From the IMG/VR virus record IMGVR_UViG_2671180473_000007: a stretch of DNA of 43,998 nucleotides, one strand, 5' to 3'. Both the position numbers and the translations under genes were made by a program. Shown piece by piece: positions 1 to 23,029 of the stretch (the first letter of the stretch is position 1; each line of letters starts with the position of its first letter). The notes under the pieces are model-generated. The model was not told where the DNA came from. It saw only the letters and a list, made by a program, of their open reading frames with translations, and did not search any database. This stretch comes from a virus. Its lineage: Duplodnaviria; Heunggongvirae; Uroviricota; Caudoviricetes.

Positions 1-13
1 GTCCAATGTGCAT

Positions 14-51
14 AAAAAAATCCGGAAACAAGTGAGCGTTTCCGGATTCTT
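14..51. terminator. Rho-independent terminator hairpin downstream of ratB
   Basis: 9-bp perfect stem tccggaaac/gtttccgga (21-29/38-46) with 8-nt loop, preceded by A7 and followed by ttctt; on the minus strand the hairpin is followed by a U7 run, 3' of the ratB stop at 125. Confidence 0.55.
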
Positions 52-124
52 ACACAGCCACTGGATCGGTCAACTGATCCTTAACTGATCGGCATTAGCT
101 CAATGAGCACCTTTTTTCTGTCTG

Positions 125-415
125 TTATTTATTCGCTGATTTTTCTGCTCGTTGCCTGCGAAGCTCTTTCGGATCGGCAATGAGAGGGCGATAAATCTCC
201 ACCCGATCGCCATCATGCACACTATCGCTTAGTTTTGCCGGACGGCTGTAAATGCCGACTTTGTTTTTAGTTAAATCGATATCGGTACGCAATTCCAGCA
301 AGCCACTGGCGCGAATAGCTTCTTCAACCGTCGCGCCCTCCTGCAGCGTCACGCGCTGCAGGTACTGCTTCTCAGGTAGCGCATAAGCCACCTCAACGGC
401 AATTTTACCTAGCAC
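125..415 (-). CDS. ratB: RatB (YfjF, UPF0125 family) protein
   Basis: ORF track 125..499; translation from [25 protein letters not shown] onward matches my recollection of E. coli RatB. Start trimmed to GTG at 415 (AAGAGG 6 nt upstream), giving 96 aa; overlaps ratA stop by 11 nt. Confidence 0.85.
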
Positions 416-881
416 TGTAAACCTCTTTCGCACGAACCGTAAAAGCCTGGACCATATTAGACGCCAGCTCTTTAAACACGCGACCAAAGGCGAGTTCAAT
501 CAACTTATTGGTAAACTCAAAGTCGAGATGAAACTCGATACGACACGCCTCCTGGCTCAGCGGCGTAAACTTCCATCCACCAATCAATTTCTTGAACGGC
601 CCATCCACCAGATTCATAAGAATACTTTGGTTACTGGTCAACTGGTTGCGGGTAGTAAACGTTTTGCTGATCCCAGCCTTAGAGACATCTACCGCCGCAG
701 TCATCTGCCCAGGAGTGGACTCCAGAATCCGACTTCCGGTACAACCCGGCAAAAACTGAGGATAAGACTGAACGTCATTCACTAACTGATACATTTGCTC
801 CGCGCTGTAGGGTACCAGTGCGGTCCGGCTAATCTGAGGCATAACTATTTCCATCAACAAAAATCCAACAAATAATATCAT
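405..881 (-). CDS. ratA: Ribosome association toxin RatA (YfjG, SRPBCC/polyketide cyclase-like)
   Basis: 158-aa ORF; sequence and position (divergent from smpB, upstream of ratB) match the E. coli ratA locus as I recall it. Confidence 0.85.
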
Positions 882-1012
882 TTATCCTGCTGTAAAAAAA
901 ACGCTATCCCGGCGCTGGGTAACATCGGGTTCATGCTAAGATAGAGCCTTGTCCCCCGCAGGATTGATATGGGGTGTTTTCGATTTCAGATTACCGATGA
1001 TTCACGACGCTT

Positions 1013-1495
1013 ATGACGAAGAAAAAAGCACATAAACCTGGTTCAGCGACCATCGCGCTTAACAAGCGCGCCCGTCACGAATACTTTATCGAAGAAGAGT
1101 TCGAAGCGGGACTTGCCCTGCAAGGCTGGGAAGTTAAATCCCTGCGCGCAGGAAAAGCCAATATCAGCGACAGCTACGTCCTTCTGCGTGACGGAGAGGC
1201 ATTTCTGTTTGGCGCTAACATCACGCCAATGGCCGTGGCCTCCACGCATGTGGTGTGCGATCCTACCCGTACCCGCAAGTTACTTCTCAACCAGCGCGAA
1301 CTGGACTCATTGTACGGTCGCGTCAATCGAGAAGGCTATACCGTAGTGGCGCTCTCCCTGTACTGGAAAAATGCCTGGTGCAAAGTGAAAATCGGCGTCG
1401 CCAAAGGTAAAAAACAGCACGATAAACGTTCAGATATCAAAGAACGCGAATGGCAGGTGGATAAAGCACGTATCATGAAAAACGCCCACCGTTAA
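1013..1495 (+). CDS. smpB: SsrA-binding protein SmpB
   Basis: 160-aa [56 protein letters not shown]...; immediately upstream of tmRNA. Confidence 0.97.
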
Positions 1496-1709
1496 ACCTG
1501 CACTCCAATTATTGACCAGTTCCTCACCGCGCCTCCCTCTCCGGCGGCGCGAATGAACATCTTATTGGCTATCACATCCGACACAAATGTTGCCATCCCA
1601 TTGCTTAATCGAATAAAAATCAGGCTACATGGGTGCTAAATCTTTAACGATAACGCCATTGAGGCTGGTCATGGCGCTCATAAATCTGGTATACTTACCT
1701 TTACACATT

Positions 1710-2072
1710 GGGGCTGATTCTGGATTCGACGGGATTTGCGAAACCCAAGGTGCATGCCGAGGGGCGGTTGGCCTCGTAAAAAGCCGCAAAAAATAGTCGC
1801 AAACGACGAAAACTACGCTTTAGCAGCTTAATAACCTGCTTAGAGCCCTCTCTCCCTAGCCTCCGCTCTTAGGACGGGGATCAAGAGAGGTCAAACCCAA
1901 AAGAGATCGCGTGGAAGCCCTGCCTGGGGTTGAAGCGTTAAAACTTAATCAGGCTAGTTTGTTAGTGGCGTGTCCGTCCGCAGCTGGCAAGCGAATGTAA
2001 AGACTGACTAAGCATGTAGTACCGAGGATGTAGGAATTTCGGACGCGGGTTCAACTCCCGCCAGCTCCACCA
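1710..2072 (+). ncRNA. ssrA: tmRNA (SsrA), 363 nt
   Basis: Begins GGGGCTGATTCTGGATTCGACGGG and ends GGTTCAACTCCCGCCAGCTCCACCA; internal tag-peptide reading frame gcaaacgacgaaaactacgctttagcagcttaa (ANDENYALAA*) at 1799-1831. Confidence 0.96.
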
Positions 2073-2196
2073 CTTTTGACAGGACTGCAACCGGACAGAG
2101 ACTATAAAAACAGTCACTTACGGACACTGACCAGACAGTAAGCGGACCAGAAAAAGACAAAAATATACACGCAAAATGCACGTGCATTTCAAAAAA

Positions 2197-2226
2197 GCCT
2201 CTGATTATGAAGTCAGAGGCTTTTCT
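2197..2226. terminator. Rho-independent terminator hairpin between ssrA and the prophage tfa gene
   Basis: Stem gcctctga/tcagaggc (2197-2204/2213-2220), 8-nt loop, A6 upstream and ttttct downstream; bidirectional geometry, 45 nt from the tfa stop at 2271. Confidence 0.5.
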
Positions 2227-2270
2227 AGTTGTAAATAAGGGTAACAATTTAACACGATGCAGCTTACCAA

Positions 2271-2963
2271 TTACGTAACATCAAACGCTCTAATTGTTCC
2301 CAAATCCTCCAGACCACTCAGCTCCTCTTTCATTTCACGCTGACGGCGATAAATCTCATCGTTGCGATCGACCTGCGCCTGCACCATTGCTGCCGCCAGT
2401 TCTTCCAGTTCCGGCATCGACAGTTTCACCTGCTGATTATCGGCATCNNNNNNNNNNNNNNNNNNNNNNNNNNNNNNNNNNNNNNNNNNNNNNNNNNNNN
2501 NNNNNNNNNNNNNNNNNNNNNNNNNNNNNNNNNNNNNNNNNNNNNNNNNNNNNNNNNNNNNNNNNNNNNNNNNNNNNNNNNNNNNNNNNNNNNNNNNNNN
2601 NNNNNNNNNNNNNNNNNNNNNNNNNNNNNNNNNNNNNNNNNNNNNNNNNNNNNNNNNNNNNNNNNNNNNNNNNNNNTTCCATTCAAACGTGAACGGCTTC
2701 GCCTCCTGTTCTGTGCGCCATGCTTCAATTTCCTGACGTCTGGCCTCTCTGGCCGCTTCCAGCATTTCTGGTGTCACAGTGAATGGGGCTATCTCACCCC
2801 ATTTGCCACTTTGCAGTTCCTGCCAGATTCGCTGACCCGTCGGTGCGACATCATCAGCGGTGGCTGTGTAGGGGACTGCCTGGTCCCTGTCGTCAAAAAA
2901 AACGTCACAGTCTACTGCGCCACTTTCGGTATAACGGGGATTAATGATTTTTTTAATTTCCAC
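2271..2963 (-). CDS. Phage tail fibre assembly protein (Tfa-like), interrupted by an assembly gap
   Basis: ORF track 2271..3023; lies directly downstream of a side-tail-fibre gene. Start trimmed to GTG at 2963 (GAGGAA 6 nt upstream, coupled to the stf stop). Contains a run of N, so true length is unknown. Confidence 0.55.
   Translation of the reverse strand: MEIKKIINPRYTESGAVDCDVFFDDRDQAVPYTATADDVAPTGQRIWQELQSGKWGEIAPFTVTPEMLEAAREARRQEIEAWRTEQEAKPFTFEWXXXXXXXXXXXXXXXXXXXXXXXXXXXXXXXXXXXXXXXXXXXXXXXXXXXXXXXXXXXXXXXXXXXXXXXXXXXXXDADNQQVKLSMPELEELAAAMVQAQVDRNDEIYRRQREMKEELSGLEDLGTIRAFDVT
2447..2676. other. Run of ~230 N (assembly gap or masked sequence)
   Basis: Literal n characters in the sequence; translated as X in overlapping ORFs. 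Confidence 0.99.
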
Positions 2964-2973
2964 GGTGCATTCC

Positions 2974-4146
2974 TCACGATGTGCGAATAAAAAGCCCGGG
3001 CATTGCGCCAGAGACATGAGCATCCGGCACCCCGGACAGGGCGCAATATGACCCCGGTAATGAATGCTCTGAACATCCCGTAATGAAAAATTGTGGGGAT
3101 GCTATATACGTTCCGGTGGGAGTACTGGGCACTGAAATCCCCACCGGTCCCAGTCGTGAGCCTCTGTATGACTGCCCCCTGACAAGTCTGATGACTTTAT
3201 CACCGTCAGCTTCTCCCTGGTACGCAGCAATAATCAGCCCGCCAATGTCAGGGTCTCCCCATCTGTTGCAGACAGAGCTCGCCACGATTCTGTAAATAAT
3301 ATCTTCTGTGGTTATATTTATTTTCACCCAGCCAGTCAGTCTGGATATGGGCCAGTAGCAGTAGCGGGTGTGATAAATGGGGCCGTTAATGCCGTAAAAA
3401 GTAAGGGATTTGGCTCTGTACCTCGGTTCTGTTGTCTCAGGGCGTGCATCAGTCCACCGGATGCTGAGCACCCCTTCAAACCGTGTGTCGGGTATGATGA
3501 TGTCGTAGGGGCCAGCAACGGAATATTCACCTGGCAGCGCATTCCTTACCCAGGCCAGGAAATCACTCTTAGTGTCAAAACGGATAACATCTTCAGGCAG
3601 AAAAGCACACCCAAAGCCGAATGCGCCGGGTATCGCCAGACGGCCTTTTGTCCGGTCGTAAATGTCGCTCTGTGCTTCCATCGTGGCCGCACTTTTCAGC
3701 CCCAGATTATCCCGGGACTTCTGTTGTGCCTTTTCGCCTGCTGCTGCGATTTCAGACAGATGGTTAGCCGTTTTCAGAGTGCCGGTCAGCGCAGCATCAA
3801 TGTCATTTTTGGCCTGCTCTGCTGCGCGGGCATAACCTGCGGCTGCCGCCACATCCTGCGCCGTCTGCTGTGCGTTTCCGGCTGCGGCCCCGGCGCTCTG
3901 CTGCGCCTGCGCCACCATTTCCTCAAAGCGTTTGACGACATCCGGTTTCAGGTCGCCCTCATCAGGAGCAATCAGAAAGTCATTCAGCGTGCCGGGCTTT
4001 GAGTCGTCGTATACAGCAATGTCGCCAACGTTGTACTCGTTGTGCCAGCCCGGTTTCAGATACACACCATATTTTCCAGTCCGCGCATGGAAACAGTATT
4101 CACCATCGTTTCCTGTCATCACATCAGCAACAGTGTGCATCACCAC
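2974..4146 (-). pseudogene. Lambda Stf-like side tail fibre protein, apparently 5'-truncated
   Basis: 390-aa ORF with YDDSKPGTLNDF...RFEEMVAQA motif resembling the N-terminal region of lambdoid Stf. Frame is open upstream to 4203 without an RBS and runs into the IS66 terminal repeat at 4163, suggesting ~20 N-terminal codons were lost. Confidence 0.6.
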
Positions 4147-4162
4147 TTCCGGGGTGTTTACC

Positions 4163-4744
4163 GTAAGCGTGCAGCAAGAACCGTATTGACGGGAATGTGT
4201 TATTCAGTCGGCAGTGCTACGCGCCAGGGGAGCAGTTCGCCGACCCGGTTTATCGGCCAGTCGGCTATGACGTCAAGGACATAGCGGAGGTAGCTTTCTG
4301 GCTCCACTCCGTTCAGTTTGCACGTCCCGATCAGGCTGTACAGCAGCGCTCCCCGCTCTCCTCCATGATCCGAACCGAAGAACAGGTAGTTTTTGCGGCC
4401 CAGACTGACCATCCGCAACGCATTTTCAGCGATGTTATTGTCCGCCTCAGCCCAGCCATCATCTGCATAGTACGTCAGCGCCGGCCACTGGTTCAGGGCA
4501 TATGCGAACGCTTTCGCCAGTTCTGAGTGTCGCGACAGGGTTTTCATCTTTTCACGCAGCCAGCTTTCCAGGGATTTCAGCAGCGGTTTCGTTTTCAACT
4601 GACGTTCGGCAAGGCGCTGTTTCAGCAGGAAGATGTCGTCAGAAGAGATGTCGTTCATAAGCCCGTATTTTACCGGGCTTATTCTGTGACAACCAGGATA
4701 AAGAGATTTACAGCATGGTCAGGGAGGTCAGCAGCCGCTTAGGC
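4163..4744 (-). mobile_element. IS66-family element, right-end fragment (terminal repeat plus 3' part of tnpC)
   Basis: GTAAGCG at 4163-4169 (IS66 ends typically start GTAA) lies ~37 bp beyond the tnpC stop. Inner boundary with the Mu-like end is uncertain (4660-4760). Confidence 0.6.
4200..4658 (-). pseudogene. IS66-family transposase TnpC, C-terminal fragment
   Basis: 152-aa ORF with ALNQWPALTYYADDGWAEADNNIAENALRMVSLGRKNYLFFGSDHGGERGALLYSLIGTCKLNGVEPESYLRYV, characteristic of the IS66 TnpC C-terminus; roughly 370 N-terminal residues are absent. Confidence 0.8.
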
Positions 4745-4765
4745 TGTCTATAGCGCGGCGATTTT

Positions 4766-4831
4766 TTTGATACCGATTTGCATTTCATTTGATACCGCTG
4801 AAAAACGCCGATACGCAACTTATTTGATACT
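4766..4831 (+). repeat. Mom-proximal (attR-like) end: three clustered ATTTGATACCG-type repeats, putative transposase binding sites
   Basis: tttgataccga (4766-4776), atttgataccg (4787-4797), atttgatact (4822-4831); close spacing resembles Mu R1-R3. Confidence 0.6.
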
Positions 4832-4876
4832 AAATCGGCGCTTTTCTTTTGAGTTTTAGAATGAGTTTTTAAGCGT

Positions 4877-5614
4877 TCATTCACTCTCTTTCAAACCAGT
4901 TTTAACTGTTTGTGGTTTTGGGTAAGGCTGGACTTTGAATAGCTTTGTGTTAAGGCGTTTTCTGGCTCTCTTGTCCAGAAACCGGATGTAACGAAACTGA
5001 CGGAATTTATGAACACTGGCTCTGTCGATATTAGCCCGCAGATGTTCACCTCGCTGTCCTCCTCGTTTGATTGCATTCTTGCAAATCTCGTGATACCACT
5101 CGCCATCAAGTTCATAGAATGTTGTTTCATGACTGCCTACATAATCAAAATTGCTTGCCTGGTACACGACACCAAGACAGCCACAACGCTCATCTGCAAA
5201 CGACTGAACCCACTGCACCTGCGGATAAAGTTGTCTGATTAGTTTGAGCGCGTAACTGATTGCCCTTGATTCGGAGTTTCTCGGCATACAGTCATGCAGC
5301 CATAACCGGTTAAGCTCCATATATTCGCGGTTCTGCGTGCCAGTTACGACGCGTGCACCATTGTTTGGATTAAGGGCATAACCCCATTGCATTACGCCAA
5401 CCAGCTCCCGTTCTGAAAATATGCCCAGATGAAGGTAGGAATTATTTACGAAACGATGGCTGTAATGTTTATTGACGACGACCAGCCGGGCCAGCCAGCA
5501 ACTTATTGTCTCAACCCGTAACTCACGGGAGCCATAACCGACGATATTGTCGTTATAGTGAATAAGTTCAGGCGTGCTGATGATACGGGATGTAACTTGC
5601 TTTCTGTTCCCCAC
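4877..5614 (-). CDS. mom: Mom-like DNA modification protein (assignment by position)
   Basis: ORF track 4877..5809; lies immediately downstream of and overlapping a Com-like zinc-finger gene at the phage end, as in Mu. Start set to GTG at 5614 (AAGGAA upstream, just 5' of the com stop). No family motif recognised directly. Confidence 0.5.
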
Positions 5615-5768
5615 GACAGGATTTCCTTGTGTATGTGGGGTGCTCTGTGGCGCTCTGAGATGTGATTTGATTGAGGGTTTTACAGCGCGGACATTTAACT
5701 TCCAGATAACTGAAGCTGGCTCGTGCCAGTAGCTTGTTACAATGTCGGCACCGTATGTTTCGATACAT
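5568..5768 (-). CDS. com: Com-like zinc-finger translational activator
   Basis: ORF track 5568..5813 trimmed to ATG at 5768 (GGAGG 9 nt upstream); [35 protein letters not shown] has the CxxC...CxxC pattern and resembles Mu Com as I recall it. Confidence 0.7.
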
Positions 5769-5789
5769 GGCCGCATAACCTCCTGCTTT

Positions 5790-5840
5790 GTTGTTGATAT
5801 CTTTATCACTCAATCGATCGACAAAAACGATCGATTTGAT
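5790..5840 (-). promoter_or_regulatory. Putative com-mom promoter regulatory region with clustered GATC (Dam) sites
   Basis: GATC at 5816-5819 and 5829-5832 within nested atcgatcg palindromes, ~50-65 bp upstream of the com start; Mu Pmom is controlled by Dam methylation of upstream GATC sites. Confidence 0.4.
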
Positions 5841-6024
5841 TTATTTAATTGATACAACAAATAACACGAAATGTCATTAGCGAAAATTTATGAGTTTGAT
5901 CACTAATTTTAAACGGTGCTGTAACGCATAAGTGCTGAATGATTGTACATTTGAATACCGCAAAGCAAACAAATCAACTAATTTATAGAAGTCAATTGGT
6001 TAATTGCCAGCGTAAGAGGCTGCT

Positions 6025-6318
6025 ATGGACAATCATGTAACGACGAGAAATCGAAAAATGATTGAAAATGCGGAAATCTATAATGATTATTTTTCCGATT
6101 ATTCAGATGCCTGCAAATACAGTTCGAGTGCGGGAGAGTTCATATGCTTCAACTTTTTTATTAAATCTTATGTTTTTCCTCCACAGCAAGAAGATGGAGG
6201 TGTGCCACCTCCTGAAATCACTTTGCACCGTATAGCCTCCGTCTCAATGATGGAGCAACAGGCTAATGAGCTGTATAGCATTCTGGGAACGATTCTACAA
6301 AAGCGTGAATCGGACTAA
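6025..6318 (+). CDS. Hypothetical protein (97 aa) in AT-rich island, opposite strand to phage genes
   Basis: ATG with AAGAGG 7 nt upstream; sits in a markedly AT-rich block (~5820-6480) unlike the GC-rich backbone. No recognisable motif. Confidence 0.4.
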   Translation: MDNHVTTRNRKMIENAEIYNDYFSDYSDACKYSSSAGEFICFNFFIKSYVFPPQQEDGGVPPPEITLHRIASVSMMEQQANELYSILGTILQKRESD

Positions 6319-6485
6319 TGATACCGGTTCATTTGCCTGCCCGGATGGGGAAGCAGGATTGACTGCTCCATAAGCAGCTATATTTCTGAATACGAAATAC
6401 TATCCAGCGATTACATATGGCTGGATAGCGGCAAAGATGTTTTCATTAGTGTCAAACCGGCAGAGGACACCACCGGTTTGTATTG

Positions 6486-6740
6486 TTACATCATGGTACT
6501 GTCAGTTCCGGGCTGAGCCGGGTCTGGTTGCTCTGGCTGCGCGTCGGTTTTCGGCTCATTATCAGCATCACTGGCCGCAACTGCTGGCCCAATAAGTTTT
6601 GCCAGCACTTCATCAACGTAAGTGTCGATTTGTGCCTCAAAATCCTTGCGGACCTGCGCTTTCAGCAACTTATTTACTTCACCGGAATACAGTGCCTGTT
6701 TTACCAGGTCTTCAGTGACGGTGCCTTTAATTTCTGGCAT
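6486..6740 (-). CDS. Hypothetical small acidic protein (84 aa)
   Basis: ATG preceded by perfect AGGAGG at 7-nt spacing; acidic, Pro/Asp/Glu-rich C-terminus. Confidence 0.55.
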   Translation of the reverse strand: MPEIKGTVTEDLVKQALYSGEVNKLLKAQVRKDFEAQIDTYVDEVLAKLIGPAVAASDADNEPKTDAQPEQPDPAQPGTDSTMM

Positions 6741-6775
6741 GTATATCCTCCTTATGCGGGAATAAAGCCCTGCAA

Positions 6776-6958
6776 TCAGGGCTGGGTCGGGTCTTTTGGG
6801 AGCGGAGTTACCTGCGCTGTTTTACTGAGTTTTTCAGCTGCTGCGTCCTCAATTTTGCGGCGAACATAATTTCTGATGGCCTTATAACCACCACTCACCA
6901 GATATAACGCACATACTGCCGTGCAGAAATACAATAAAATAAGCTGTAAAAATGTCAT
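6776..6958 (-). CDS. Hypothetical small membrane protein (60 aa, one N-terminal TM helix)
   Basis: ORF track 6776..6970 trimmed to ATG at 6958 (GGGAGGG upstream): MTFLQLILLYFCTAVCALYLVSGGYKAIRNYVRRK, hydrophobic helix then basic region. Confidence 0.55.
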   Translation of the reverse strand: MTFLQLILLYFCTAVCALYLVSGGYKAIRNYVRRKIEDAAAEKLSKTAQVTPLPKDPTQP

Positions 6959-7054
6959 TATCCCTCCCAATTATTGACATGGTGTTGACACCGGTAATAT
7001 CTGTTAGGTAAAAAGGTGCACTGCATTTTTTGCTTTGGATATAACGATCTTTTT

Positions 7055-7097
7055 GCCGCCGGTTTCTTGTTTTCCCTTACCGGCGGCATTTTTTTAT
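7055..7097 (+). terminator. Canonical rho-independent terminator, plus-strand orientation
   Basis: 9-bp perfect GC-rich stem gccgccggt/accggcggc (7055-7063/7079-7087) followed by atttttttat; T-run only on the plus strand although flanking genes are minus-strand. Confidence 0.5.
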
Positions 7098-7102
7098 CCT
7101 GC

Positions 7103-9157
7103 TTACGCGTTATTCACTTCCACCACGATACTGTCAATCAGTACCGGGTAAGTCGCATTTTTAGTGATATCGGTCACGCGCAACTTGTCTGCCGTAAACG
7201 TGCCGACCGGAGACTGCGACAGCATGAATGGTGTCCCGTCCTTACCATCAATGACCGGCGTCACCTCAATACTGTTGTTACCGGCAAAACGGAAGCCCAG
7301 CGTATGCCATTCGTTATTAAATGCGCCGAATGACCCCAGCTTCGTGTTCTGCGCCGTGTTTCCTTTGTGATACATCACGTTAAGGTCTGTGGCATCGCTC
7401 TGTACGTAGAACGATGCCAGCAGGTTATGACCGGCATTTCCTTCCAGAGTAACCCCTTGCGGCAGGGCAGAAACCGGCCAGTACAGCGCCAGTGCGTACT
7501 GATTAGCCGTAAGCGCGCCATCGAGTTTAAAACGACAACTGACAAGACCACCTTTACCCAGCAGGTCCGCACCATTACCAGCATCATGCTCAAGGTACCA
7601 GGGGGCTCTTCCTGTTTCCTTGGTCAGTTTCATTGCCTTACCCCCGCTGGCTCCGGCATCATCCACGATTTGAGCCTTGCCACCTCCGGCAGCCCAACCC
7701 TGTGGTGTCAACCGTCCTTCAGACTCAGATGCCCGGTAAGCAAATAGCGTACTCATCGTCGTGGTGTCTGCGGGTGGCGTGGACGGTTTTGATGGTGTAT
7801 CAGGTGACGGCTTCTCATCCGGTGGTGTCACGGTCTGCCCACGCATCAGTTCAGCCGTGCGCCCTGCATGGAGCATAATAGCTGAGGCCAGACGGTCTGA
7901 AATGACGCCCCTGCGTGCCCATGAGCTGAAATGGCTGTCACGCTGTGTCGAAACAAAACTGCCCTGGGTTCGGGATGCTGCACCGTAATACCCGACAGCC
8001 ACAATATCCGGGTCTTCCGCCGGAGCATTCGTTGGCGTGCTCTGTCCATTCTCATCCGTCAGGAACGGTACAAAGAAAATTTTCTGTGCTTCCTTGCCTT
8101 TGTAGCCACCGTATACTGCCTCATATTTATCGGTGCCAGCGTTTTTCCAGTAATACGTGGTATCACCGCAAATCCACGGCACCGTGGTGGCATTTCCACT
8201 CACGCACTGCGCAGCAAGCGGAGCCAGGTCAGTTCTGAACTGCTGAACCATGGCCGTGAATAAACTATTATGCTGCTGGCTTCCTGAGGCAAGGTCTGCC
8301 TCTCCCTGCATCCAGACCACAGCCAGAAGTTTGTTTTTCGGGTTTTTCGCCAGCGCGACTTTGGTGCGGCTTACCAGGTCCTGATACAGAGGTTTACCGG
8401 CCCCCCAGCGTGAAGAATCAGCGGAAGCACCGCTGGCCTCACTGAATGAGCCGTCGGCTCCAGTGGTGAATGCTGACCCGCCACGACAACAGGGCACCAG
8501 AAGTATCCCGGCATTCTGTGGGATATAGGGAAGCAGTTTTTTGGCAATATGCAACCCCTGACCGACAGTCCCGTACTGGCCTTTTGCCAGATCAGCTTTC
8601 GGGTGGTTTATCCCGCTCATATCCTGAACATCATGCAGGCAGTGGTCTGCCGGAATGATGTCGTTGTATGTACACGACGTACCGTTGGGCGTTACCGTAC
8701 TGCGGCGTGCCAGTTGCTTAATGCGTGGGTCCGGGCGGTCAAACGAATCCGGTAACGGCAGCCCCTCGCCGTAGGCCATGCCATTTGACTGACCCGCGAG
8801 AATGACAACAAAGTAATATTCCGGCTCTGAACTGCTGCCATTCGTGCTACCGGAAGGCCCGGCGTTATCCGGTGCATTCCAGTCGGAGGGCGTGAGCGTT
8901 CCGGCCACGTCAGATGTGATTGGAATGATGCCAGTCACGCCTGAACTGGTGATTTCTGCACTGGGATTACCGGATACCGGCATTACCCATAATGGCTCTT
9001 TCGTGCTGAAGCGGATCACGCAGTCTGCGAAGGTGATCCCCCCTTTATTACCCGAAGGGCGGAAAGGGCTTTCAATAAATGCCACCGTGCCACCGGCAAC
9101 CTTGACTGAAAACTCTCCGGGCATGGCGGAGAGCATTTTCCACTTGGAGTCTGACAT
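7103..9157 (-). CDS. SASA/SGNH-family carbohydrate esterase (prophage NanS-p-like sialate O-acetylesterase candidate) with C-terminal lectin-like domain
   Basis: 684-aa ORF; VILAGQSNGMAYGEG resembles the GQSNM catalytic block of sialate O-acetylesterase-type domains, with WMQGEAD and DHCLHD further on. Sits between gin and mom, where Mu has no gene. Confidence 0.6.
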   Translation of the reverse strand: MSDSKWKMLSAMPGEFSVKVAGGTVAFIESPFRPSGNKGGITFADCVIRFSTKEPLWVMPVSGNPSAEITSSGVTGIIPITSDVAGTLTPSDWNAPDNAGPSGSTNGSSSEPEYYFVVILAGQSNGMAYGEGLPLPDSFDRPDPRIKQLARRSTVTPNGTSCTYNDIIPADHCLHDVQDMSGINHPKADLAKGQYGTVGQGLHIAKKLLPYIPQNAGILLVPCCRGGSAFTTGADGSFSEASGASADSSRWGAGKPLYQDLVSRTKVALAKNPKNKLLAVVWMQGEADLASGSQQHNSLFTAMVQQFRTDLAPLAAQCVSGNATTVPWICGDTTYYWKNAGTDKYEAVYGGYKGKEAQKIFFVPFLTDENGQSTPTNAPAEDPDIVAVGYYGAASRTQGSFVSTQRDSHFSSWARRGVISDRLASAIMLHAGRTAELMRGQTVTPPDEKPSPDTPSKPSTPPADTTTMSTLFAYRASESEGRLTPQGWAAGGGKAQIVDDAGASGGKAMKLTKETGRAPWYLEHDAGNGADLLGKGGLVSCRFKLDGALTANQYALALYWPVSALPQGVTLEGNAGHNLLASFYVQSDATDLNVMYHKGNTAQNTKLGSFGAFNNEWHTLGFRFAGNNSIEVTPVIDGKDGTPFMLSQSPVGTFTADKLRVTDITKNATYPVLIDSIVVEVNNA

Positions 9158-9233
9158 CGTCTTTTCTGCCTGTTTCTGAATTAAACAGAGTCAGAATAGC
9201 GACCGCTGAAAAATATGTGTTTTGCGGAAATTC

Positions 9234-9262
9234 AAAAAAGCGTCACGGTACTTTTGGTGACG
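9234..9262 (-). terminator. Rho-independent terminator at the 3' end of the invertase gene
   Basis: Stem cgtcac/gtgacg (9241-9246/9257-9262) overlapping the invertase stop, followed on the minus strand by a U6 run (plus-strand aaaaaa 9234-9239). Confidence 0.45.
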
Positions 9263-9815
9263 GAGCTGGTGAGGCAGGAAAATAACGATAAAGGGTGGAA
9301 AGGCCAATATCAAATATCAGTGCGATTTGTTTACGGGACTCGCCATTAGCCAGCAAACGGGCGATTTGCTCCCGCTCTTTCTCTGTCAGTTTCTGAGGTC
9401 TGCCGCCATGACGCCCCTGAGCACGGGCAGCAGCAAGACCCGCGCGTGTACGTTCAATAATGAGTTCCCGCTCCATTTCCGCCAGCGCGCCCATTATATG
9501 GAAAAAGAAACGTCCCATGGGAGTGGATGTATCAATATTGTCCGTAATGCTGCGGAAGTTAACGCCGCGTTGCCGGAGTTCTTCTGTTAAAAGGACAAGG
9601 TGCTGCATACTGCGTCCAAGGCGATCCAGTTTCCAGACCAGCAGGGTATCCCCTGGCCGGAGTCGCTTTAATGCGCGTTTAAGTCCGGGACGCTCCCTTG
9701 TCTTACCGCTTATTCTGTCTTCGAAAAACAGCTCACATCCTGCACATTCCAGCGCATTTCTTTGTAGCGCCGTATTCTGGTCATTTGTTGACACCCTGAT
9801 ATACCCAATCAGCAT
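9243..9815 (-). CDS. gin: Serine-recombinase DNA invertase (Gin/Pin/Cin/Hin family)
   Basis: 190-aa ORF MLIGYIRVSTNDQNTALQRNALECAGCELFFEDRISGKTRERPGLKRALKRLRPGDTLLVWKLDRLGRSM..., near-colinear with Mu Gin as I recall it; adjacent to a gix-like site and the invertible segment. Confidence 0.93.
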   Translation of the reverse strand: MLIGYIRVSTNDQNTALQRNALECAGCELFFEDRISGKTRERPGLKRALKRLRPGDTLLVWKLDRLGRSMQHLVLLTEELRQRGVNFRSITDNIDTSTPMGRFFFHIMGALAEMERELIIERTRAGLAAARAQGRHGGRPQKLTEKEREQIARLLANGESRKQIALIFDIGLSTLYRYFPASPAPSPKVP

Positions 9816-9880
9816 ACGATTTCCTTATTATAAAAAGCCGGAATTGTCGCATGAGGAATAAAACAGAGTTAATCCTGGCT

Positions 9881-9906
9881 TTCCTGAAAACCTCGGTTTA
9901 CGGGAA
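9881..9906. other. gix-like recombination site (left crossover site of invertible segment)
   Basis: TTCCTGAAAACCTCGGTTTACGGGAA: 26-bp imperfect dyad closely resembling the Gin/Hin-family crossover-site consensus; 66 bp from the invertase start. Confidence 0.7.
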
Positions 9907-10018
9907 ACGGTAAACAGGGCGGCGAATGCTCTGCCATCGGACGGCACCGCCGTTGCCGCGAATAGACTCGCCACCCCAAGAAATATTAATGGGGTTCCCT
10001 TTGACGGGACGCAGGACA
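9894..10018 (+). repeat. Inverted repeat, left copy (~125 bp)
   Basis: Near-identical to the reverse complement of 11087-11211 with one divergent central patch; encodes ...[24 protein letters not shown]...[12 protein letters not shown] in both copies. Confidence 0.85.
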
Positions 10019-10254
10019 TAAACATCACTTCTGGTATAACACAGCAGGATGCGGATTCCCGATATATCCAGGATATCAGGCTGGGAGCAGAGAACAGGCA
10101 GGTAATGTACGGTGGGGCATATTACTCTGCGTACGGTAATGTTATGGCAGGCCTGCAGATTGACAGTAAAGTTGATGCTTCAAACGATTTTATAGCATTC
10201 AGACCCCTGCAAAAATTAGTCGGAGGTACATGGATTACGGTATCTCAGTTATAA
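9894..10254 (+). other. Silent alternative tail-fibre C-terminal cassette (Sv'-like), promoterless in current orientation
   Basis: Plus-strand frame continuing from the inverted repeat: ...[89 protein letters not shown], stop at 10252-10254; no start codon of its own. Confidence 0.7.
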
Positions 10255-10305
10255 ATAGTCAGTAAATAATATATTTTAAAACAGATTTATTTCCAGGAGG
10301 ATTTT

Positions 10306-10827
10306 ATGGAACTAAAAAATATAACCCGTTATTATCCTGAAAATATGCCATATGGTAATAATGTTCAGTATTTCCAGAGTGAAGATGGTAAGGATTTCTA
10401 CGAATCCCTGCCATTATTCACCAAAAAATATAAACTTTGCATAACACCTGACAGCGGCGTTATCTGCTCAATATCACAGGACGCCTCGGCGCTGTATCCT
10501 GCGGGGTTTTCTGTGGTTGAGGTCGATGAACTCCCTGAAGGCACGGATATTTCAGGAAACTGGAAGTTTGATAATGGCATAATCTCCCGTATTCCGGTTA
10601 ACTACGCAAGAAAACTGGAAGCAATGCGCCAGTCATATCTTAATCAGGCATATGAAAAAATTAATGACTGGAGAACGGAGCTACAACTGGGCACCATCAG
10701 CGATGAAGACAGAGCAGCACTTACCCAATGGATGGCATACATCAGTCAGGTGAAGAAAATGGAACTACCCGCCATTAAAACAGAAGCTGAATTTAACGCC
10801 ATTAAATGGCCTGAGCAGCCACAGTAA
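10306..10827 (+). CDS. Tail fibre assembly protein (U'/Tfa-like) inside the invertible segment
   Basis: 173-aa ORF with AGGAGG RBS; C-terminus ...EAEFNAIKWPEQPQ typical of Tfa chaperones; follows the Sv' cassette on the same strand. Confidence 0.75.
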   Translation: MELKNITRYYPENMPYGNNVQYFQSEDGKDFYESLPLFTKKYKLCITPDSGVICSISQDASALYPAGFSVVEVDELPEGTDISGNWKFDNGIISRIPVNYARKLEAMRQSYLNQAYEKINDWRTELQLGTISDEDRAALTQWMAYISQVKKMELPAIKTEAEFNAIKWPEQPQ

Positions 10828-10831
10828 TAAA

Positions 10832-10849
10832 GAAGGCCGGAAGGCCTTC
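10832..10849. terminator. Bidirectional terminator hairpin between convergent tfa and tail-fibre genes
   Basis: Stem gaaggcc/ggccttc with ggaa loop, flanked by A/T-rich tracts on both sides. Confidence 0.5.
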
Positions 10850-10858
10850 TGAATATCA

Positions 10859-11740
10859 TTATATACTTGCAGCCGTCACCCATGCTCCATTTAACAGATA
10901 CTGCAACGGCCGGTAATACACGCCGCCGACGTTATCTGCCGTATTCTTACCGACATCCTGTACTTTAATTCCGGTAAGAACATTGCCGCCCCCCAGATTC
11001 AGATCCCAGCTTTCCCATGTTCCGGGCATATGTGCGGTCACCGACCCCAGTCTTATGGCGGTTACTGTTCCTGATGAGATAGTGATATCCTGCGTCCCGT
11101 CAAAGGGAACACCATTAATTGTGTGGGCATTTGCCAGCCTGTTCGCGGCAACGGCGGTGCCGTCCGATGGCAGGGCATTCGCCGCCCTGTTTACCGTTTC
11201 CCGTAAACCGACGTTATCGATAAAAGCCCCTTTATCCGGAATGTCTGCGCCGTTCTGCTCCCTGCGCAGGTAACGGTTATCACCTTCGCTTTTGCTGTAA
11301 ACATCCAGATTATTACGGGCGGTTCCCTTATTCTCCAGGTCGGCGAGATTCTGATCCTTCGCCAGGGCATTAACGTCAGCGGGACCAAGACTGTTTTTTG
11401 TGGCAAGCGTCCCCAGACCAAGATAACCACGGGCCAGACGCTGGGCCTCCGCACCGGCATCAGCAATTTCTTTCAGGTTATTTTTCCGGGAAAAGGCATT
11501 CGCAGCGATAATGGCTTTAATGGACAGCGTAAGCTGGTTTAACTGCGCCTTATCCGGCTGAATACTGGCTTCAGCCAGAATATTCAGCAGTTCGGCCTGG
11601 AGAATATTCAGCCAGTCCTGACCAATCCAGCTGATACCTTTTTGTCCGTCACCTTCGGTAAACCAGGTGGTGGTATTACTCTGCGCCGGTGCCAGCGCAG
11701 GCATATTCGCCACGCCGGAATTATTATCAACATGAAACAT
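10859..11740 (-). CDS. Tail fibre protein (S-like): constant N-terminal part plus currently expressed variable C-terminus
   Basis: 293-aa ORF; residues ~177-218 are encoded by the right inverted repeat and the last ~75 aa lie inside the invertible segment; start overlaps the upstream baseplate gene stop (TAATG). Confidence 0.85.
11087..11211 (-). repeat. Inverted repeat, right copy (~125 bp)
   Basis: Reverse complement of 9894-10018 with a few mismatches. Confidence 0.85.
11198..11223. other. gix-like recombination site (right crossover site)
   Basis: TTCCCGTAAACCGACGTTATCGATAA, 26-bp imperfect dyad related to the left site, at the outer edge of the right inverted repeat. Confidence 0.65.
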
Positions 11741-12300
11741 TAAATAGTCTCCTCTTCATGGCTGTTTGCATAAACGTAAATAAACGTCTGCCATGCAGGC
11801 TTATAACGGTTCAGAATACATTCCAGCGCACCGCCTTCATAAATACGCAGCGGCGTGAGAATATCATCCAGCACATTCATATTCCGGTAGCCGGTTTCAC
11901 TGTTAATCGTGACAATACTGACCCACTGCGAATCCGGTGAGGGCTGAATGTCAATCTGATAACCAAACTCCGCCGCAAACCGGATATAAAATTCACGGTT
12001 CAGCGAGGGCTTCATCCGGTATTTATTTCCGGCATAACGCTGTCGCTCCGTGAGGGTGGCTCCGGCCATATCACACTCGGGAAGCCCGAGATAACGCTCC
12101 CAGTCTTCCAGCAGCAGGCGCGACGTGTCAGGGAAACGCTCGGCAAGCAGCTGTTTACCCGTCCAGGATACACGCGCTGTCGAATGACTGAGGCCCAGAC
12201 ATAATGATGCCAGTACGGATGACGGACGCTTGTCCCATGCCAGCCCGTCAGGCAGTAACTGCAACAGGGCGCGCTGATGCGGGGTCAGGGTTACAGCCAT
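11740..12300 (-). CDS. Baseplate/tail protein (Mu gp48-like)
   Basis: 186-aa ORF immediately upstream of the tail fibre gene, as in Mu; assignment by position. Confidence 0.6.
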
Positions 12301-13373
12301 GTGATTTCTCCTACCGTCAGCAGCTCACTGTCTCCCGCCTGAACTGACGTCAGCGGACTGCGCACTTCAAAATCCTCCAGATTTTTCACCCCTGCCACCG
12401 CCCGCCAGAAAGACGACGGCAGAACCAGACCGCCGGGCCGGGATTCGTTATACAACAGGTCGGTCAGCGCCTGTTTTACGGCCGCCTGATTCTCCGGTGT
12501 TTTCGGGATGATCCTGATGCTGAAGGGCACCGGCTTATTGGTCAGTTTAAACACGGTCACCGTCGGCCCCAGAGGCTGTCCGACAGGCTGGCCGGTCGCC
12601 GGATCATCATGACTGCGGATATAATCCGCCACCCGCTGAACATCACCGTCACCGGGGAAAATATCCGGGTTATTATCCTGAACAAACGTTACCCCCACGC
12701 TGCCCGCCTGCGGCCATTCCGGGCGGCACCATGCCCGCGTCACGCCCGGCACTTCACGCGCCCAGCGTTCAAAATCATACTGCGTGCCGCCGGACGGTGG
12801 ATTCTGCACCCGGAAAACCAGACGGGAAAGCAGCTCCGGCACGGTTTCCACATCCGCACCACCGGTGATCCCCGTTCCGGTCACCGTGGCCGTCTGGTTG
12901 ATCCCCGCCTGCGGTGTGATAAATGTCAGTTTTGTCCCTGCCGGGGCATTCCCCGCACGACCGGCACTTTCGGCTTCCACACTGACATTCAGCGTACCGG
13001 CCTTACCGGTCAGGGAGGTGGTGATACGGTAAACCACGCCATCACTTCGCTGGAGAAGCACACCTTCCTTGATCCCCGCATCCGTGGTCAGCATCAGCTG
13101 AACCGGCCCGTCCCCCCGAGAGGCAGGCTTACGCATGACGCCCCAGAATGCACAGTGTTTCAGCAGTTCGGCTTCATCGGCTTCGGTCGGGATGATCTGA
13201 CGCGCAATCCAGGCCAGATGCTCATGCTCCTGAGCAGATAACCCTGCCTGAGCGTAAGCAATGGCATTCAGGGTGGTTTCATTCACACCCGGCTGCGAGC
13301 CGGGCAGGCGCTGGCTGATATCCTGCTGTGTCTGCGTGATTAACTGTGCCAGCGGTAAAGGCTGATAAGGCAT
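12291..13373 (-). CDS. Baseplate J-like protein (Mu gp47-like)
   Basis: 360-aa ORF in the baseplate gene block; assignment by size and position. Confidence 0.65.
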   Translation of the reverse strand: MPYQPLPLAQLITQTQQDISQRLPGSQPGVNETTLNAIAYAQAGLSAQEHEHLAWIARQIIPTEADEAELLKHCAFWGVMRKPASRGDGPVQLMLTTDAGIKEGVLLQRSDGVVYRITTSLTGKAGTLNVSVEAESAGRAGNAPAGTKLTFITPQAGINQTATVTGTGITGGADVETVPELLSRLVFRVQNPPSGGTQYDFERWAREVPGVTRAWCRPEWPQAGSVGVTFVQDNNPDIFPGDGDVQRVADYIRSHDDPATGQPVGQPLGPTVTVFKLTNKPVPFSIRIIPKTPENQAAVKQALTDLLYNESRPGGLVLPSSFWRAVAGVKNLEDFEVRSPLTSVQAGDSELLTVGEITWL

Positions 13374-13810
13374 TACTCCCCCTTAAGATCAGCATAAAAA
13401 ATCATGGGCCTCACTGAACCATCAGGCAGGGTTATGCGCACCGAAAGCGCCAGCCGCGCGTGTCCCACACGTTCTGCATGACAGACCACGGATGACGCCA
13501 CGCCATCCTGACTGAGCCAGCCCAGCGCCTCATCCGCGTAAGCACGGGCACGGCTTATCACCGAGGCCAGCGTTTTTTCCCGGCTGAGAAGCCACAGACG
13601 GGAGCCAATGGGGCGCGGGCGAAAACTGTCTCCCCACCATCCCCGGCGGTCGCGCGTACCGTCAGGGATTTCATCCGATGCCAGCGCCCGGCGGTCAGTA
13701 AACAGCGAAATCAGAACGGCCGTCAGCAGACTGTCATCCGTCAGCAAGTCGGCACCGTTCAGTTGCAGCGAACCGCACCCCTGATCCCATACAATTGCAA
13801 TATCAGCCAT
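13373..13810 (-). CDS. Baseplate protein (Mu gp46-like)
   Basis: ORF track 13373..13954 trimmed to the ATG at 13810 (MADIAIVWDQG...), which overlaps the upstream stop as ATGGCTGA. Confidence 0.55.
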   Translation of the reverse strand: MADIAIVWDQGCGSLQLNGADLLTDDSLLTAVLISLFTDRRALASDEIPDGTRDRRGWWGDSFRPRPIGSRLWLLSREKTLASVISRARAYADEALGWLSQDGVASSVVCHAERVGHARLALSVRITLPDGSVRPMIFYADLKGE

Positions 13811-14417
13811 TCTCCGGCGCTCCTGTCTTACTGCCTTTGCCGTTATCCTGATGCACATGGCCGGAATAGGTGATCCCGGCAATAACGGCATCAGACATCG
13901 TGAACAGCCCGTCTGATTTACCTGTACCATCAAGCACGAAATTACCCTTAACATGCAGGTTTTTATCCACCGTCACATTGCCCGTAAAGGTGGCCTCCGG
14001 CGTATCCACCCGCATCCCCTCATCGGCGTAAATCTCCAGCATTTTGCATGTCACAATAATGCGACCATCCTTTGTTAACCGTATCCGGTGCCCCTCATGG
14101 TGATACACCCCCGTATCTCCGGCTGTGAGTCCGGTCGGGCGGCTGCGCCGGTCTTCCACCACAAGCACCACAGTCTGATCCCGCTGTCCGCCCAGACAGG
14201 CAAAAAAGGTTTCCGCACCCGGCAGGGGAACGCTGATCTGCCCGTACTGCTGGGGACGCTCCACATCATCAAAGGTTTCGCCGTCCATGCCGGTGAGCTG
14301 CACATTCTGCATTTTCAGTTCGTCATGTGTGCCGGTCAGAACGCCCCGGCCAAACAACAGGCGAATACCGCGCGTTACCGGGGCAATCAGGCGGCTGAAC
14401 ACTTCATCATTCATCAA
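13803..14417 (-). CDS. Baseplate assembly/spike protein (Mu gp45-like)
   Basis: 204-aa ORF in the baseplate block; assignment by position. Confidence 0.6.
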   Translation of the reverse strand: MMNDEVFSRLIAPVTRGIRLLFGRGVLTGTHDELKMQNVQLTGMDGETFDDVERPQQYGQISVPLPGAETFFACLGGQRDQTVVLVVEDRRSRPTGLTAGDTGVYHHEGHRIRLTKDGRIIVTCKMLEIYADEGMRVDTPEATFTGNVTVDKNLHVKGNFVLDGTGKSDGLFTMSDAVIAGITYSGHVHQDNGKGSKTGAPENG

Positions 14418-22257: not shown

Positions 22258-22673
22258 ATAAAGCCCTTCTGGTTGCGCCCGAACACCGCCGCATCAGACT
22301 GCACCTGCGGTAAATCCCCGGATTCAGGGGCCGCACCGTCTGTATCCACGCCGACCGGCACGTTACCGTTCATGACATCTTTCAGCCAGGCCAGCGCCTC
22401 ACGGTAACGGTCACGCGCCTGATCGGATGCCCGCTGATCGCACAGGTAATAAAAGGCAATCGTGCAGCAATGCTGAACAAGGACCGCCGGAACCACCGCC
22501 AGCGGCAGCGTGTAACGGGAAGACAGATAGCTGTCGATAAGGGCAGACGCGTCCGTCAGTGCCCGGTTCAGCTTGCGCGTGTCCGGTTCATCCGAACGGG
22601 GCACGGCCAGTAATGGCCTGAGCAAATCCTCGCGGTAACGTGCCCGCATATCGGTTTCGGTGGCGTAATTCAT
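22254..22673 (-). CDS. Head completion protein (Mu gp36-like)
   Basis: 139-aa ORF; assignment by position. Confidence 0.5.
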   Translation of the reverse strand: MNYATETDMRARYREDLLRPLLAVPRSDEPDTRKLNRALTDASALIDSYLSSRYTLPLAVVPAVLVQHCCTIAFYYLCDQRASDQARDRYREALAWLKDVMNGNVPVGVDTDGAAPESGDLPQVQSDAAVFGRNQKGFI

Positions 22674-23029
22674 GCGCGCGCCTTTTTCGCCTGTCTGGCG
22701 TTATTGCCGGTCTTTTTCCGGGGAGCATCCTGTACGGTTTCGGCTTCGGCTAAATCTGCACCGGTCTCTGCATGAACCACACCCGCCACGGCTCCCGCAT
22801 CATCACCAGGCGTCTGTAGTATTCGTACAGTGAGGCATGGCTCCGCTTCCAGTCGGGCAAGCTGCTCCGGGGTGACGTCAACCTGCTGGCGTCCCCGCAT
22901 GAACAGGAACCCCGCACGACGAAAATGCGTACGACTGCAACGCACTTCTGCCAGTACCGTGACAGGACTGTCACCACTGACCTGAAGGCCTGAATCATCT
23001 GTTGCTGCCACAGTGTGATGTTCATTCAT
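22670..23029 (-). CDS. Hypothetical head-associated protein
   Basis: 119-aa ORF immediately downstream of the major capsid gene. Confidence 0.45.
   Translation of the reverse strand: MNEHHTVAATDDSGLQVSGDSPVTVLAEVRCSRTHFRRAGFLFMRGRQQVDVTPEQLARLEAEPCLTVRILQTPGDDAGAVAGVVHAETGADLAEAETVQDAPRKKTGNNARQAKKARA

Follow-up and report, generated by a model that had tools for sequence, protein, structure and literature searches.

Why should a Mu-like prophage of Escherichia coli carry about 3.4 kb of additional DNA at a place where phage Mu has 94 bp? The question is raised by IMG/VR virus record IMGVR_UViG_2671180473_000007, a stretch of 43,998 nucleotides which is referred to below as the window. The distance from the stop codon of the invertase gene gin (9243) to the start of com (5768) is ~3.47 kb in the window; in Mu, gin lies 94 bp from com and the inserted segment is absent, as had been stated in an earlier account made from the letters of this DNA alone (the sequence-only reading). 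Direct reading of the segment also reproduced the three open reading frames (ORFs) of that account at positions 6486-9157, with their lengths of 684, 60, and 84 amino acids and their Shine-Dalgarno sequences. Our analysis suggests, with a probability of about 0.7, that these genes represent a phage NanS-p cassette, composed of an esterase, a DUF1378 protein, and a DUF826 protein, which resides in a Mu-like prophage and in which the esterase's N-terminal domain has been replaced. We read the cassette itself as known; the new elements are the Mu-like backbone and the replaced domain.

The esterase and its two companion genes

The esterase gene (7103-9157 on the minus strand, stop codon included) begins with ATG and encodes a protein of 684 amino acids. 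Pfam analysis revealed a SASA domain at residues 117-312 (E 1.5e-13; 51 bits, above the gathering score cutoff of 24.8) and a DUF6645 domain at residues 533-650 (E 7e-68), while PHROG 143 matched residues 71-684 (E 1.7e-296). Residues 110-428 matched the E. coli NanS structure 3pt5 (E 1.8e-117), and residues 469-683 matched the structure of a NanS-p C-terminal domain, 6yp6 (E 7e-98). The protein can accordingly be divided into an SGNH/SASA catalytic domain (residues 112-430; 7868-8824, minus strand), delimited by the 3pt5 match and the catalytic motifs, and a lectin-like jelly-roll C-terminal domain corresponding to DUF6645 (residues 469-684; 7106-7753, minus strand). The catalytic motifs are GQSN at residues 122-125 (Ser124), QGE at 284-286, and RDSH from residue 406 (His409). 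By the block definitions given for NanS-p (PMC10462455), they match SGNH blocks I, III, and IV, and their residues are invariant across 30 homologues. Neither a signal peptide nor a membrane anchor was found by direct reading of the protein sequence. A full-length AlphaFold model, based on 30 close homologues, was discarded as unusable (mean predicted local distance difference test score, pLDDT, of 37.6).

By these matches, the 684-amino-acid protein is clearly assignable to the NanS-p-type sialate O-acetylesterases with a lectin-like C-terminal domain. The sequence-only reading, which had noticed the GQSN block and the lectin-like domain and had likened the protein to NanS-p, is borne out in this respect by Pfam and by both structures, and the SASA/SGNH profile (E 1.5e-13) was recovered together with the catalytic Ser and His. 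The window esterase shares 65% identity with NanS-p of phage 933W over aligned residues ~94-683, and ~70% within the catalytic domain. Lambdoid NanS-p enzymes remove O-acetyl groups from the sialic acid Neu5,9Ac2 and from mucin glycans (PMC8065619). Their expression is late and is induced with the late genes or with the Shiga toxin genes, stx (PMC8065619; PMC10462455). Enterohaemorrhagic E. coli (EHEC) relies on nanS-p alleles for growth on Neu5,9Ac2 (PMC8065619).

The two genes that follow the esterase were assigned to DUF1378 (6776-6958, minus strand; Pfam E 1e-31) and DUF826 (6486-6740, minus strand; Pfam E 6e-16). The ORF of the former could be read as 64 amino acids from a TTG codon (6776-6970), but an ATG at 6958 lies behind GGGAGGG and gives a protein of 60 amino acids, as in RefSeq. 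The start of the DUF826 ORF is preceded by the Shine-Dalgarno sequence AAGGAGG. In the DUF1378 protein, a single hydrophobic stretch (residues 3-21) precedes basic residues that are taken to be cytoplasmic. The protein has an isoelectric point (pI) of 9.3 and shares 72% identity with the copy in the O157 Mu-like lineage and 51-71% with lambdoid copies. The 84-amino-acid DUF826 protein is acidic (pI 4.2), with a conserved N-terminal half, a tail rich in Pro, Gln, and Glu, and a conserved hydrophobic end (..MM/ML). A single-pass membrane protein and a small acidic protein, as described before, are therefore indeed what these genes encode.

Both small genes were located within 900 bp in 45 of 46 distinct sequences downstream of such esterases; the remaining sequence had DUF1378 alone. 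Classified by the N-terminus of the esterase, these 45 loci comprised 18 of the Mu type, 25 of the DUF1737 type, and 2 that were unclassified. In phage 933W, the esterase gene L0105 is followed by a 59-amino-acid DUF1378 ORF, a DUF826 ORF hidden within the annotated L0106, and then holin S. The gene order in a lambdoid prophage of strain M3 is Q ... esterase, DUF1378, DUF826, holin, lysozyme, Rz. The trio of esterase, DUF1378, and DUF826 genes is an already existing unit of lambdoid phages, in which it precedes the holin, and not a new gene combination. No holin follows the trio in Mu-like prophages. Given this and the linkage in 45 of 46 sequences, it is the esterase, and not the lysis cassette, with which the small genes travel. 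Since they are inherited with the esterase, DUF1378 and DUF826 most likely serve it and play a part in its handling. YdfR of E. coli K-12, considered as a possible DUF826 protein of a lysis cassette, was ruled out as it belongs to DUF1327.

An unrelated N-terminal domain on a shared enzyme body

Pfam detected no DUF1737 domain (PF08410) on the window esterase, and the N-terminal ~82 residues were without any Pfam match. DUF1737, which the sequence-only reading had named as a profile to search the protein against, is thus not present, and the N-terminus is a different domain. In precomputed Pfam assignments, PF08410 occurs on lambdoid homologues and on none of the Mu-type ones. Alignment of the N-terminal domain with DUF1737 gave no credible similarity, and NanS-p matches from phage records begin at residue ~94 of the window protein, Mu-like inserts excepted. 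The N-terminal region is composed of an all-beta domain (residues 1-82; 8912-9157, minus strand) and a disordered acidic linker rich in Ser, Gly, and Pro (residues 83-111; 8825-8911, minus strand; pLDDT <50). The AlphaFold2 model of the domain consists entirely of strands at residues 11-70 (pLDDT ~77-88). The predicted fold is a small cupin-like barrel, whereas DUF1737 has been described as a helix with three strands. Fold searches gave no significant match (best E values of 0.05 in the Protein Data Bank with Foldseek and 0.015 in BFVD), returned generic cupin-like barrels only, and revealed no decoration protein.

The domain was found on esterases of Mu-like prophages only. All 34 of the 34 IMG/VR contigs bearing it have Mu-like neighbours. 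An exhaustive HMMER search against 1.84 billion representatives yielded four matches at E <= 0.001, namely two E. coli protein fragments, one spurious match, and one true distant relative (P0006) from Salmonella enterica. The latter is 30% identical, belongs to a Mu-like prophage, where it follows the fibre genes and the invertase, and is fused to a SASA domain; two further Salmonella variants of the domain were also found. A word-index search with the domain returned fragments only, a scan of genome contigs gave no match, and no paralogue or similarity was detected among the other proteins of the prophage, including those of the baseplate and fibres. The phage collection contained no isolated phage with this protein, its only full-length matches being Mu-like inserts inside records of Shiga toxin (Stx) prophages. 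Wherever its context was intact, the N-terminal domain belonged to a Mu-like prophage of E. coli or Salmonella. Between two E. coli Mu-like lineages it is 59% identical, with a non-synonymous divergence (dN) of 0.29 and saturated synonymous divergence (dS) relative to the O157 lineage; this pattern indicates that the ~82-amino-acid domain is under purifying selection. The only unusual feature of the cassette is the replacement of DUF1737 by this unrelated, conserved beta domain and its linker.

The remainder of the enzyme is shared with lambdoid phages. A 2-kb segment of the window (8825..6824), which extends from codon ~111 of the esterase, where the catalytic domain begins, through two thirds of the DUF1378 gene, displays 87% DNA identity with a lambdoid locus (L044), and DUF1737-type proteins share up to 89-91% identity over residues ~94-684. 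Such DNA identity over 2 kb implies that the enzyme body is still being exchanged between Mu-like and lambdoid phages.

Several IMG/VR contigs (L086, positions 1-5200; L087, positions 9700-13947; L015) consist of a Mu-like half joined to a lambdoid half across the shared esterase body. One of these hybrids carries gin, an esterase with the Mu-type N-terminal domain, a lambdoid DUF1378 gene, a holin, and a lysozyme; a reciprocal one carries Q ... a DUF1737 esterase, a Mu-type DUF1378 gene, DUF826, com, and mom. A search of 5,426 complete E. coli genomes for the junction of L086 gave no match, and the hybrids were not accepted as true recombinants on this ground. They are probably assembly chimeras over the ~2-kb repeat, although rare true recombination between prophages may also be involved.

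The com/mom type of the window prophage was present in 233 of the 5,426 complete genomes, at 285 places. The Mu-type N-terminal domain occurred in the window's form in 28 genomes and in the form typical of O157 and of Sakai prophage Sp18 in 205 genomes, at 246 places. Since 233 equals the sum of 28 and 205, essentially every Sp18-type prophage has the cassette; the comparison is one of totals and not of individual genomes. These counts indicate fixation of the cassette among the Sp18-type Mu-like prophages of E. coli, while it is absent from Mu. The sequence-only reading had called the genes a cargo module; occasional cargo would not agree with such counts. It had also named the case opposed to its proposal, in which the trio would be a conserved core part of all Mu-like phages. 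This is nearly what was observed, as far as the Sp18-type family is concerned, but Mu does not have the trio. Overall, an esterase with the Mu-like N-terminal domain is encoded in ~4% of complete E. coli genomes, the inspected O157:H7 genomes among them. In a published description, Sp18 is a Mu-like prophage that is apparently intact (PMC2669165). The searchable literature contained no mention of an esterase in Sp18 or of the variant with the replaced N-terminal domain.

At least five insertion sites were identified: a diguanylate cyclase gene, a fimbrial usher gene downstream of elfD, bcsA, flgL, and nadB. This diversity of interrupted host genes is as expected of an active transposable phage. 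Some relatives without gin retain the cassette. The dN/dS values relative to the O157 Mu-like lineage were 0.09 for the SASA domain, 0.18 for the C-terminal domain, 0.32 for DUF1378, and 0.22 for DUF826. These values, together with ORFs that are intact in hundreds of genomes, show that these are real genes and not chance ORFs. Divergence across positions 4877-9815 is mosaic: in comparison with one relative (L005), mom retains 97% protein identity (dS 0.23), dS reaches 1.5 in gin, and it is saturated in the esterase. Identity of the C-terminal domain falls to 40% in some relatives. The cassette has a history different from that of the flanking phage genes.

Possible roles of the cassette

By analogy with its lambdoid orthologues, the esterase, which lacks a signal peptide, would be synthesised in the cytoplasm and would meet its substrate upon lysis of the induced cell. 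There it would strip O-acetyl groups off Neu5,9Ac2 on mucin glycans, with the C-terminal domain keeping the enzyme on the glycan, and this de-O-acetylation would benefit surviving lysogens and perhaps the phage as well. The last and weakest step of the proposed explanation is that the replacement N-terminal domain would act as an adaptor fixing the enzyme to the Mu-like virion. It is modelled on gp84 of phage phi24B, a NanS-p that is an abundant virion protein. In a 2026 preprint, the DUF1737 domain of gp84 is reported to bind as a hexamer to the centre of capsid hexons, with later removal of the enzyme part by cleavage (bioRxiv 10.64898/2026.04.10.717836). Docking of the window esterase on a Mu-like virion is a tentative suggestion, to which we give clearly less than even odds. 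If the esterase docks on the capsid, a candidate partner would be the 119-amino-acid protein with a FluMu_N domain that is encoded directly downstream of the major head gene gpT (protein gene at 22670-23029, minus strand; gpT at 23073-24020). Equally tentative is a more general model, in which NanS-p-type esterases would be modular enzymes displayed on virions through an N-terminal adaptor that can be exchanged: DUF1737 for lambdoid heads and the ~82-amino-acid beta domain for the Mu-like (gpT) head or tail, with DUF1378 and DUF826 serving in loading or maturation.

Several considerations weigh against the proposed explanation. The substrate specificity of the Mu-like version could differ from that of the assayed lambdoid enzymes, given the 65% identity to NanS-p of 933W. 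Scans for promoters and terminators revealed nothing exceeding shuffled controls. The tie between N-terminal domain and phage type is also predicted by a neutral explanation: because homologous recombination swaps only the enzyme body, a non-homologous N-terminal domain stays with its backbone whether it docks or not. Among lambdoid phages, subtype a of DUF1737 occurs with the head genes of 933W and subtypes c, d, and e with head genes of the lambda GpA type, each of these four with one set, but there are three different terminase/portal sets for subtype b, so the lambdoid domain is not strictly matched to one head type. The covariation of DUF1737 subtypes with head modules is therefore a weak argument for matching of adaptor and capsid.

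The neutral explanation is equally at home in a purely nutritional account of the locus as a lysogenic-conversion set. Lysing lysogens would release the esterase, survivors would use 9-O-acetylated sialic acid from mucus, and the N-terminal domain, having no role in the virion, could serve solubility, oligomerisation, or regulation. This account is plausible and falls a little short of an even chance. It agrees with the published role of NanS-p in EHEC, including growth on Neu5,9Ac2 via nanS-p alleles (PMC8065619), and with the conservation of both the catalytic and the lectin-like domains. What it leaves aside is the abundance of the phi24B orthologue as a structural protein, as well as the layout of the Mu-type protein, in which a domain that purifying selection has conserved in lineages of both E. 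coli and Salmonella is always N-terminal and is followed by a flexible linker, as in anchoring modules. Docking on the virion and nutrition of the survivors are, moreover, mutually compatible. The position of the gene, directly after the block of tail-fibre genes, G segment, and gin, or after the fibre-assembly gene in gin-less relatives, would also suit an adsorption enzyme, that is, a tail-associated esterase acting on O-acetylated O-antigen, K antigen, or colanic acid in the manner of SGNH-esterase tailspikes. Some proteins annotated as tail components do have SASA domains (PHROG 25867 'tail protein', E 1e-6; a minor tail protein of an Arthrobacter phage), and de-acetylation of O-antigen has been posed as a possibility in a review (PMC8065619). 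We nevertheless consider this role unlikely, as the catalytic body is interchangeable with lambdoid alleles proven on sialic acids, the N-terminal domain has no detectable resemblance to other proteins of the prophage, including those of baseplate and fibres, and no signature of a trimeric fibre or beta-helix was seen.

The sequence-only reading had favoured a unit for surface-glycan modification or superinfection exclusion, acting in the lysogen. DUF1378 is a membrane protein, and accessory genes near the ends of prophages are often exclusion genes, a general frequency that speaks for such a role. Our results, however, make it very improbable. The esterase has neither a signal peptide nor a membrane anchor, the Pfam families of the trio are limited to SASA/DUF6645, DUF1378, and DUF826, with no Gtr, Oac, transferase, flippase, or acyltransferase domain among them, and the search for PADLOC families returned a single sub-threshold match (E 0.0076). 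In addition, the lambdoid trio belongs to a late, lysis-proximal operon that is induced with stx, and not to regions expressed in the lysogen. That the genes are a functionless passenger, left by recombination between lambdoid and Mu-like prophages, was already disfavoured and can be given hardly any credence. The recombination with lambdoid alleles is clear, and hybrid contigs do exist in draft assemblies, but 233 complete genomes carry intact ORFs, at many insertion sites, every part has a dN/dS within 0.09-0.32, and the L086 junction is missing from all 5,426 complete genomes.

NanS-p esterases have been studied as fitness factors of Shiga-toxin E. coli, so far in lambdoid phages only. The Mu-like version represents a natural domain-swap experiment, in which the enzyme body is kept and the N-terminal domain is different and conserved, and its interest lies chiefly in offering a direct test of the virion-display model for these enzymes. 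If the domain docks, display of a mucus-glycan esterase on virions would be a convergent, selected trait across unrelated phage architectures; a contractile-tailed transposable phage would also bear a mucin-glycan esterase on its particle, and counts of nanS-p alleles per strain should take in the Mu-like type. If it does not, the decoration role would be specific to some lambdoid heads. The strict linkage of the trio on both backbones also provides the first functional handle on DUF1378 and DUF826.

Setting of the cassette and comparison with known systems

The window DNA is that of E. coli, and several complete genomes match it at 100% identity. It contains a complete Mu-like prophage on the minus strand, with genes for MuA, MuB, GemA, portal, MuF, protease I, and the gpT head protein, followed by tail and baseplate genes. 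A tail fibre gene (10859-11740, minus strand) lies at the right end of the prophage, next to a short remnant of an invertible segment (9881-10827), which contains a fibre-assembly gene (10306-10827, plus strand) and a partial fibre gene (9881-10255, plus strand). The G-like segment (9828-10860) is thus reduced to these two plus-strand genes, convergent with the 293-amino-acid fibre gene; the arrangement is identical, and frozen, in the gin-less relatives. The gin-type DNA invertase gene (9243-9815, minus strand; Pfam Resolvase and HTH_7; 72% DNA identity with Mu gin) forms the upstream boundary of the extra segment. Its downstream boundary is formed by com (5568-5768, minus strand; Pfam Zn_ribbon_Com; RefSeq) and mom (4877-5614, minus strand; Pfam Mom; RefSeq; 72% DNA identity with the Mu gene). 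The GATC-containing block of the Mu gin-com spacer is retained beside com in the window prophage; therefore, the extra DNA has gin on one side and the mom control region on the other.

What remains of the extra segment is filled by a divergent ORF of 86 amino acids (6058-6318, plus strand), which lies outside the conserved trio and is a hypothetical protein in RefSeq. It is acidic, has a G+C content of 0.36-0.42, is divergent from com, and gave no match in Pfam, NCBIfam, PHROG, or PADLOC. Its slot is variable, being occupied by a 154-amino-acid ORF in the O157 lineage and by other small ORFs in FORC_069, and looks like a hot spot for accessory genes beside the mom control region.

An inverted repeat, CGTCAC...GTGACG, at 9221-9262 (minus strand) overlaps the stop codon of gin and has CTTTTTT behind it. 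The repeat resembles a gin terminator, which was missed by the terminator scan because of its 10-nucleotide loop; with a terminator at this place, the esterase would need its own, non-consensus promoter within the next ~60 bp. A G+C-rich hairpin (GCCGCCGGT...ACCGGCGGC) is located just past the esterase stop codon, at 7040-7100, with A-runs on either side of it on the coding strand. It would be a terminator solely for antisense (plus-strand) transcription. The Mu-like prophage ends near position 4750. Beyond it, in the region 2250-4750, are a fragment of an IS66-family transposase gene (4200-4658), a remnant of a tail-fibre gene of another prophage (2974-4146), and a very A+T-rich stretch (2250-2750; G+C 0.28). 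This neighbourhood suggests that the Mu-like phage inserted into an older graveyard of mobile elements.

The closest known systems are the NanS-p loci of Stx and other lambdoid phages (933W L0105 / z1466; phi24B gp84 = vb_24B_21), which have in common with the window locus the SASA domain, the 6yp6-type C-terminal domain, the downstream DUF1378 and DUF826 genes, and the absence of a signal peptide. They differ in the N-terminal domain, which is the capsid-binding DUF1737 in the lambdoid proteins and an unrelated all-beta domain of ~82 residues in the window protein, and in genomic position: the lambdoid genes lie between Q/stx and the holin, while in the window it is gin and com/mom of a transposable phage that flank the gene, with no holin after it. 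Chromosomal NanS (YjhS) of E. coli, represented by 3pt5, is the counterpart of the catalytic domain (E 1.8e-117) and aligns with it at the GQSN serine and the R-x-S-H histidine, but is a single-domain protein of ~330 residues and has neither the N-terminal nor the lectin-like C-terminal domain. The arrangement of a small anchoring domain, a flexible linker, and an enzyme or binding module is reminiscent of glycan-binding capsid decoration proteins such as T4 Hoc and phi24B gp84; this is purely an analogy of layout, and the helix and three strands of DUF1737 differ from the predicted cupin-like barrel. Modules for O-antigen modification or exclusion of the Gtr/Oac type are distinguished by their gene content, as no transferase, flippase, or defence family was found in the four proteins of the extra segment with Pfam, NCBIfam, or PADLOC. 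Mu, finally, has homologous gin, com, and mom genes (72% DNA identity) and the GATC spacer block is kept beside com, but the 94-bp spacer of Mu contrasts with ~3.4 kb and four genes in the window prophage family. In SfMu, the gin-mom region is 1.5 kb by its authors' polymerase chain reaction design (PMC4406740), which is taken to mean that the insert is absent. The cassette, which is no part of the genome of Mu, belongs, by matching counts, to essentially all Sp18-type prophages of E. coli.

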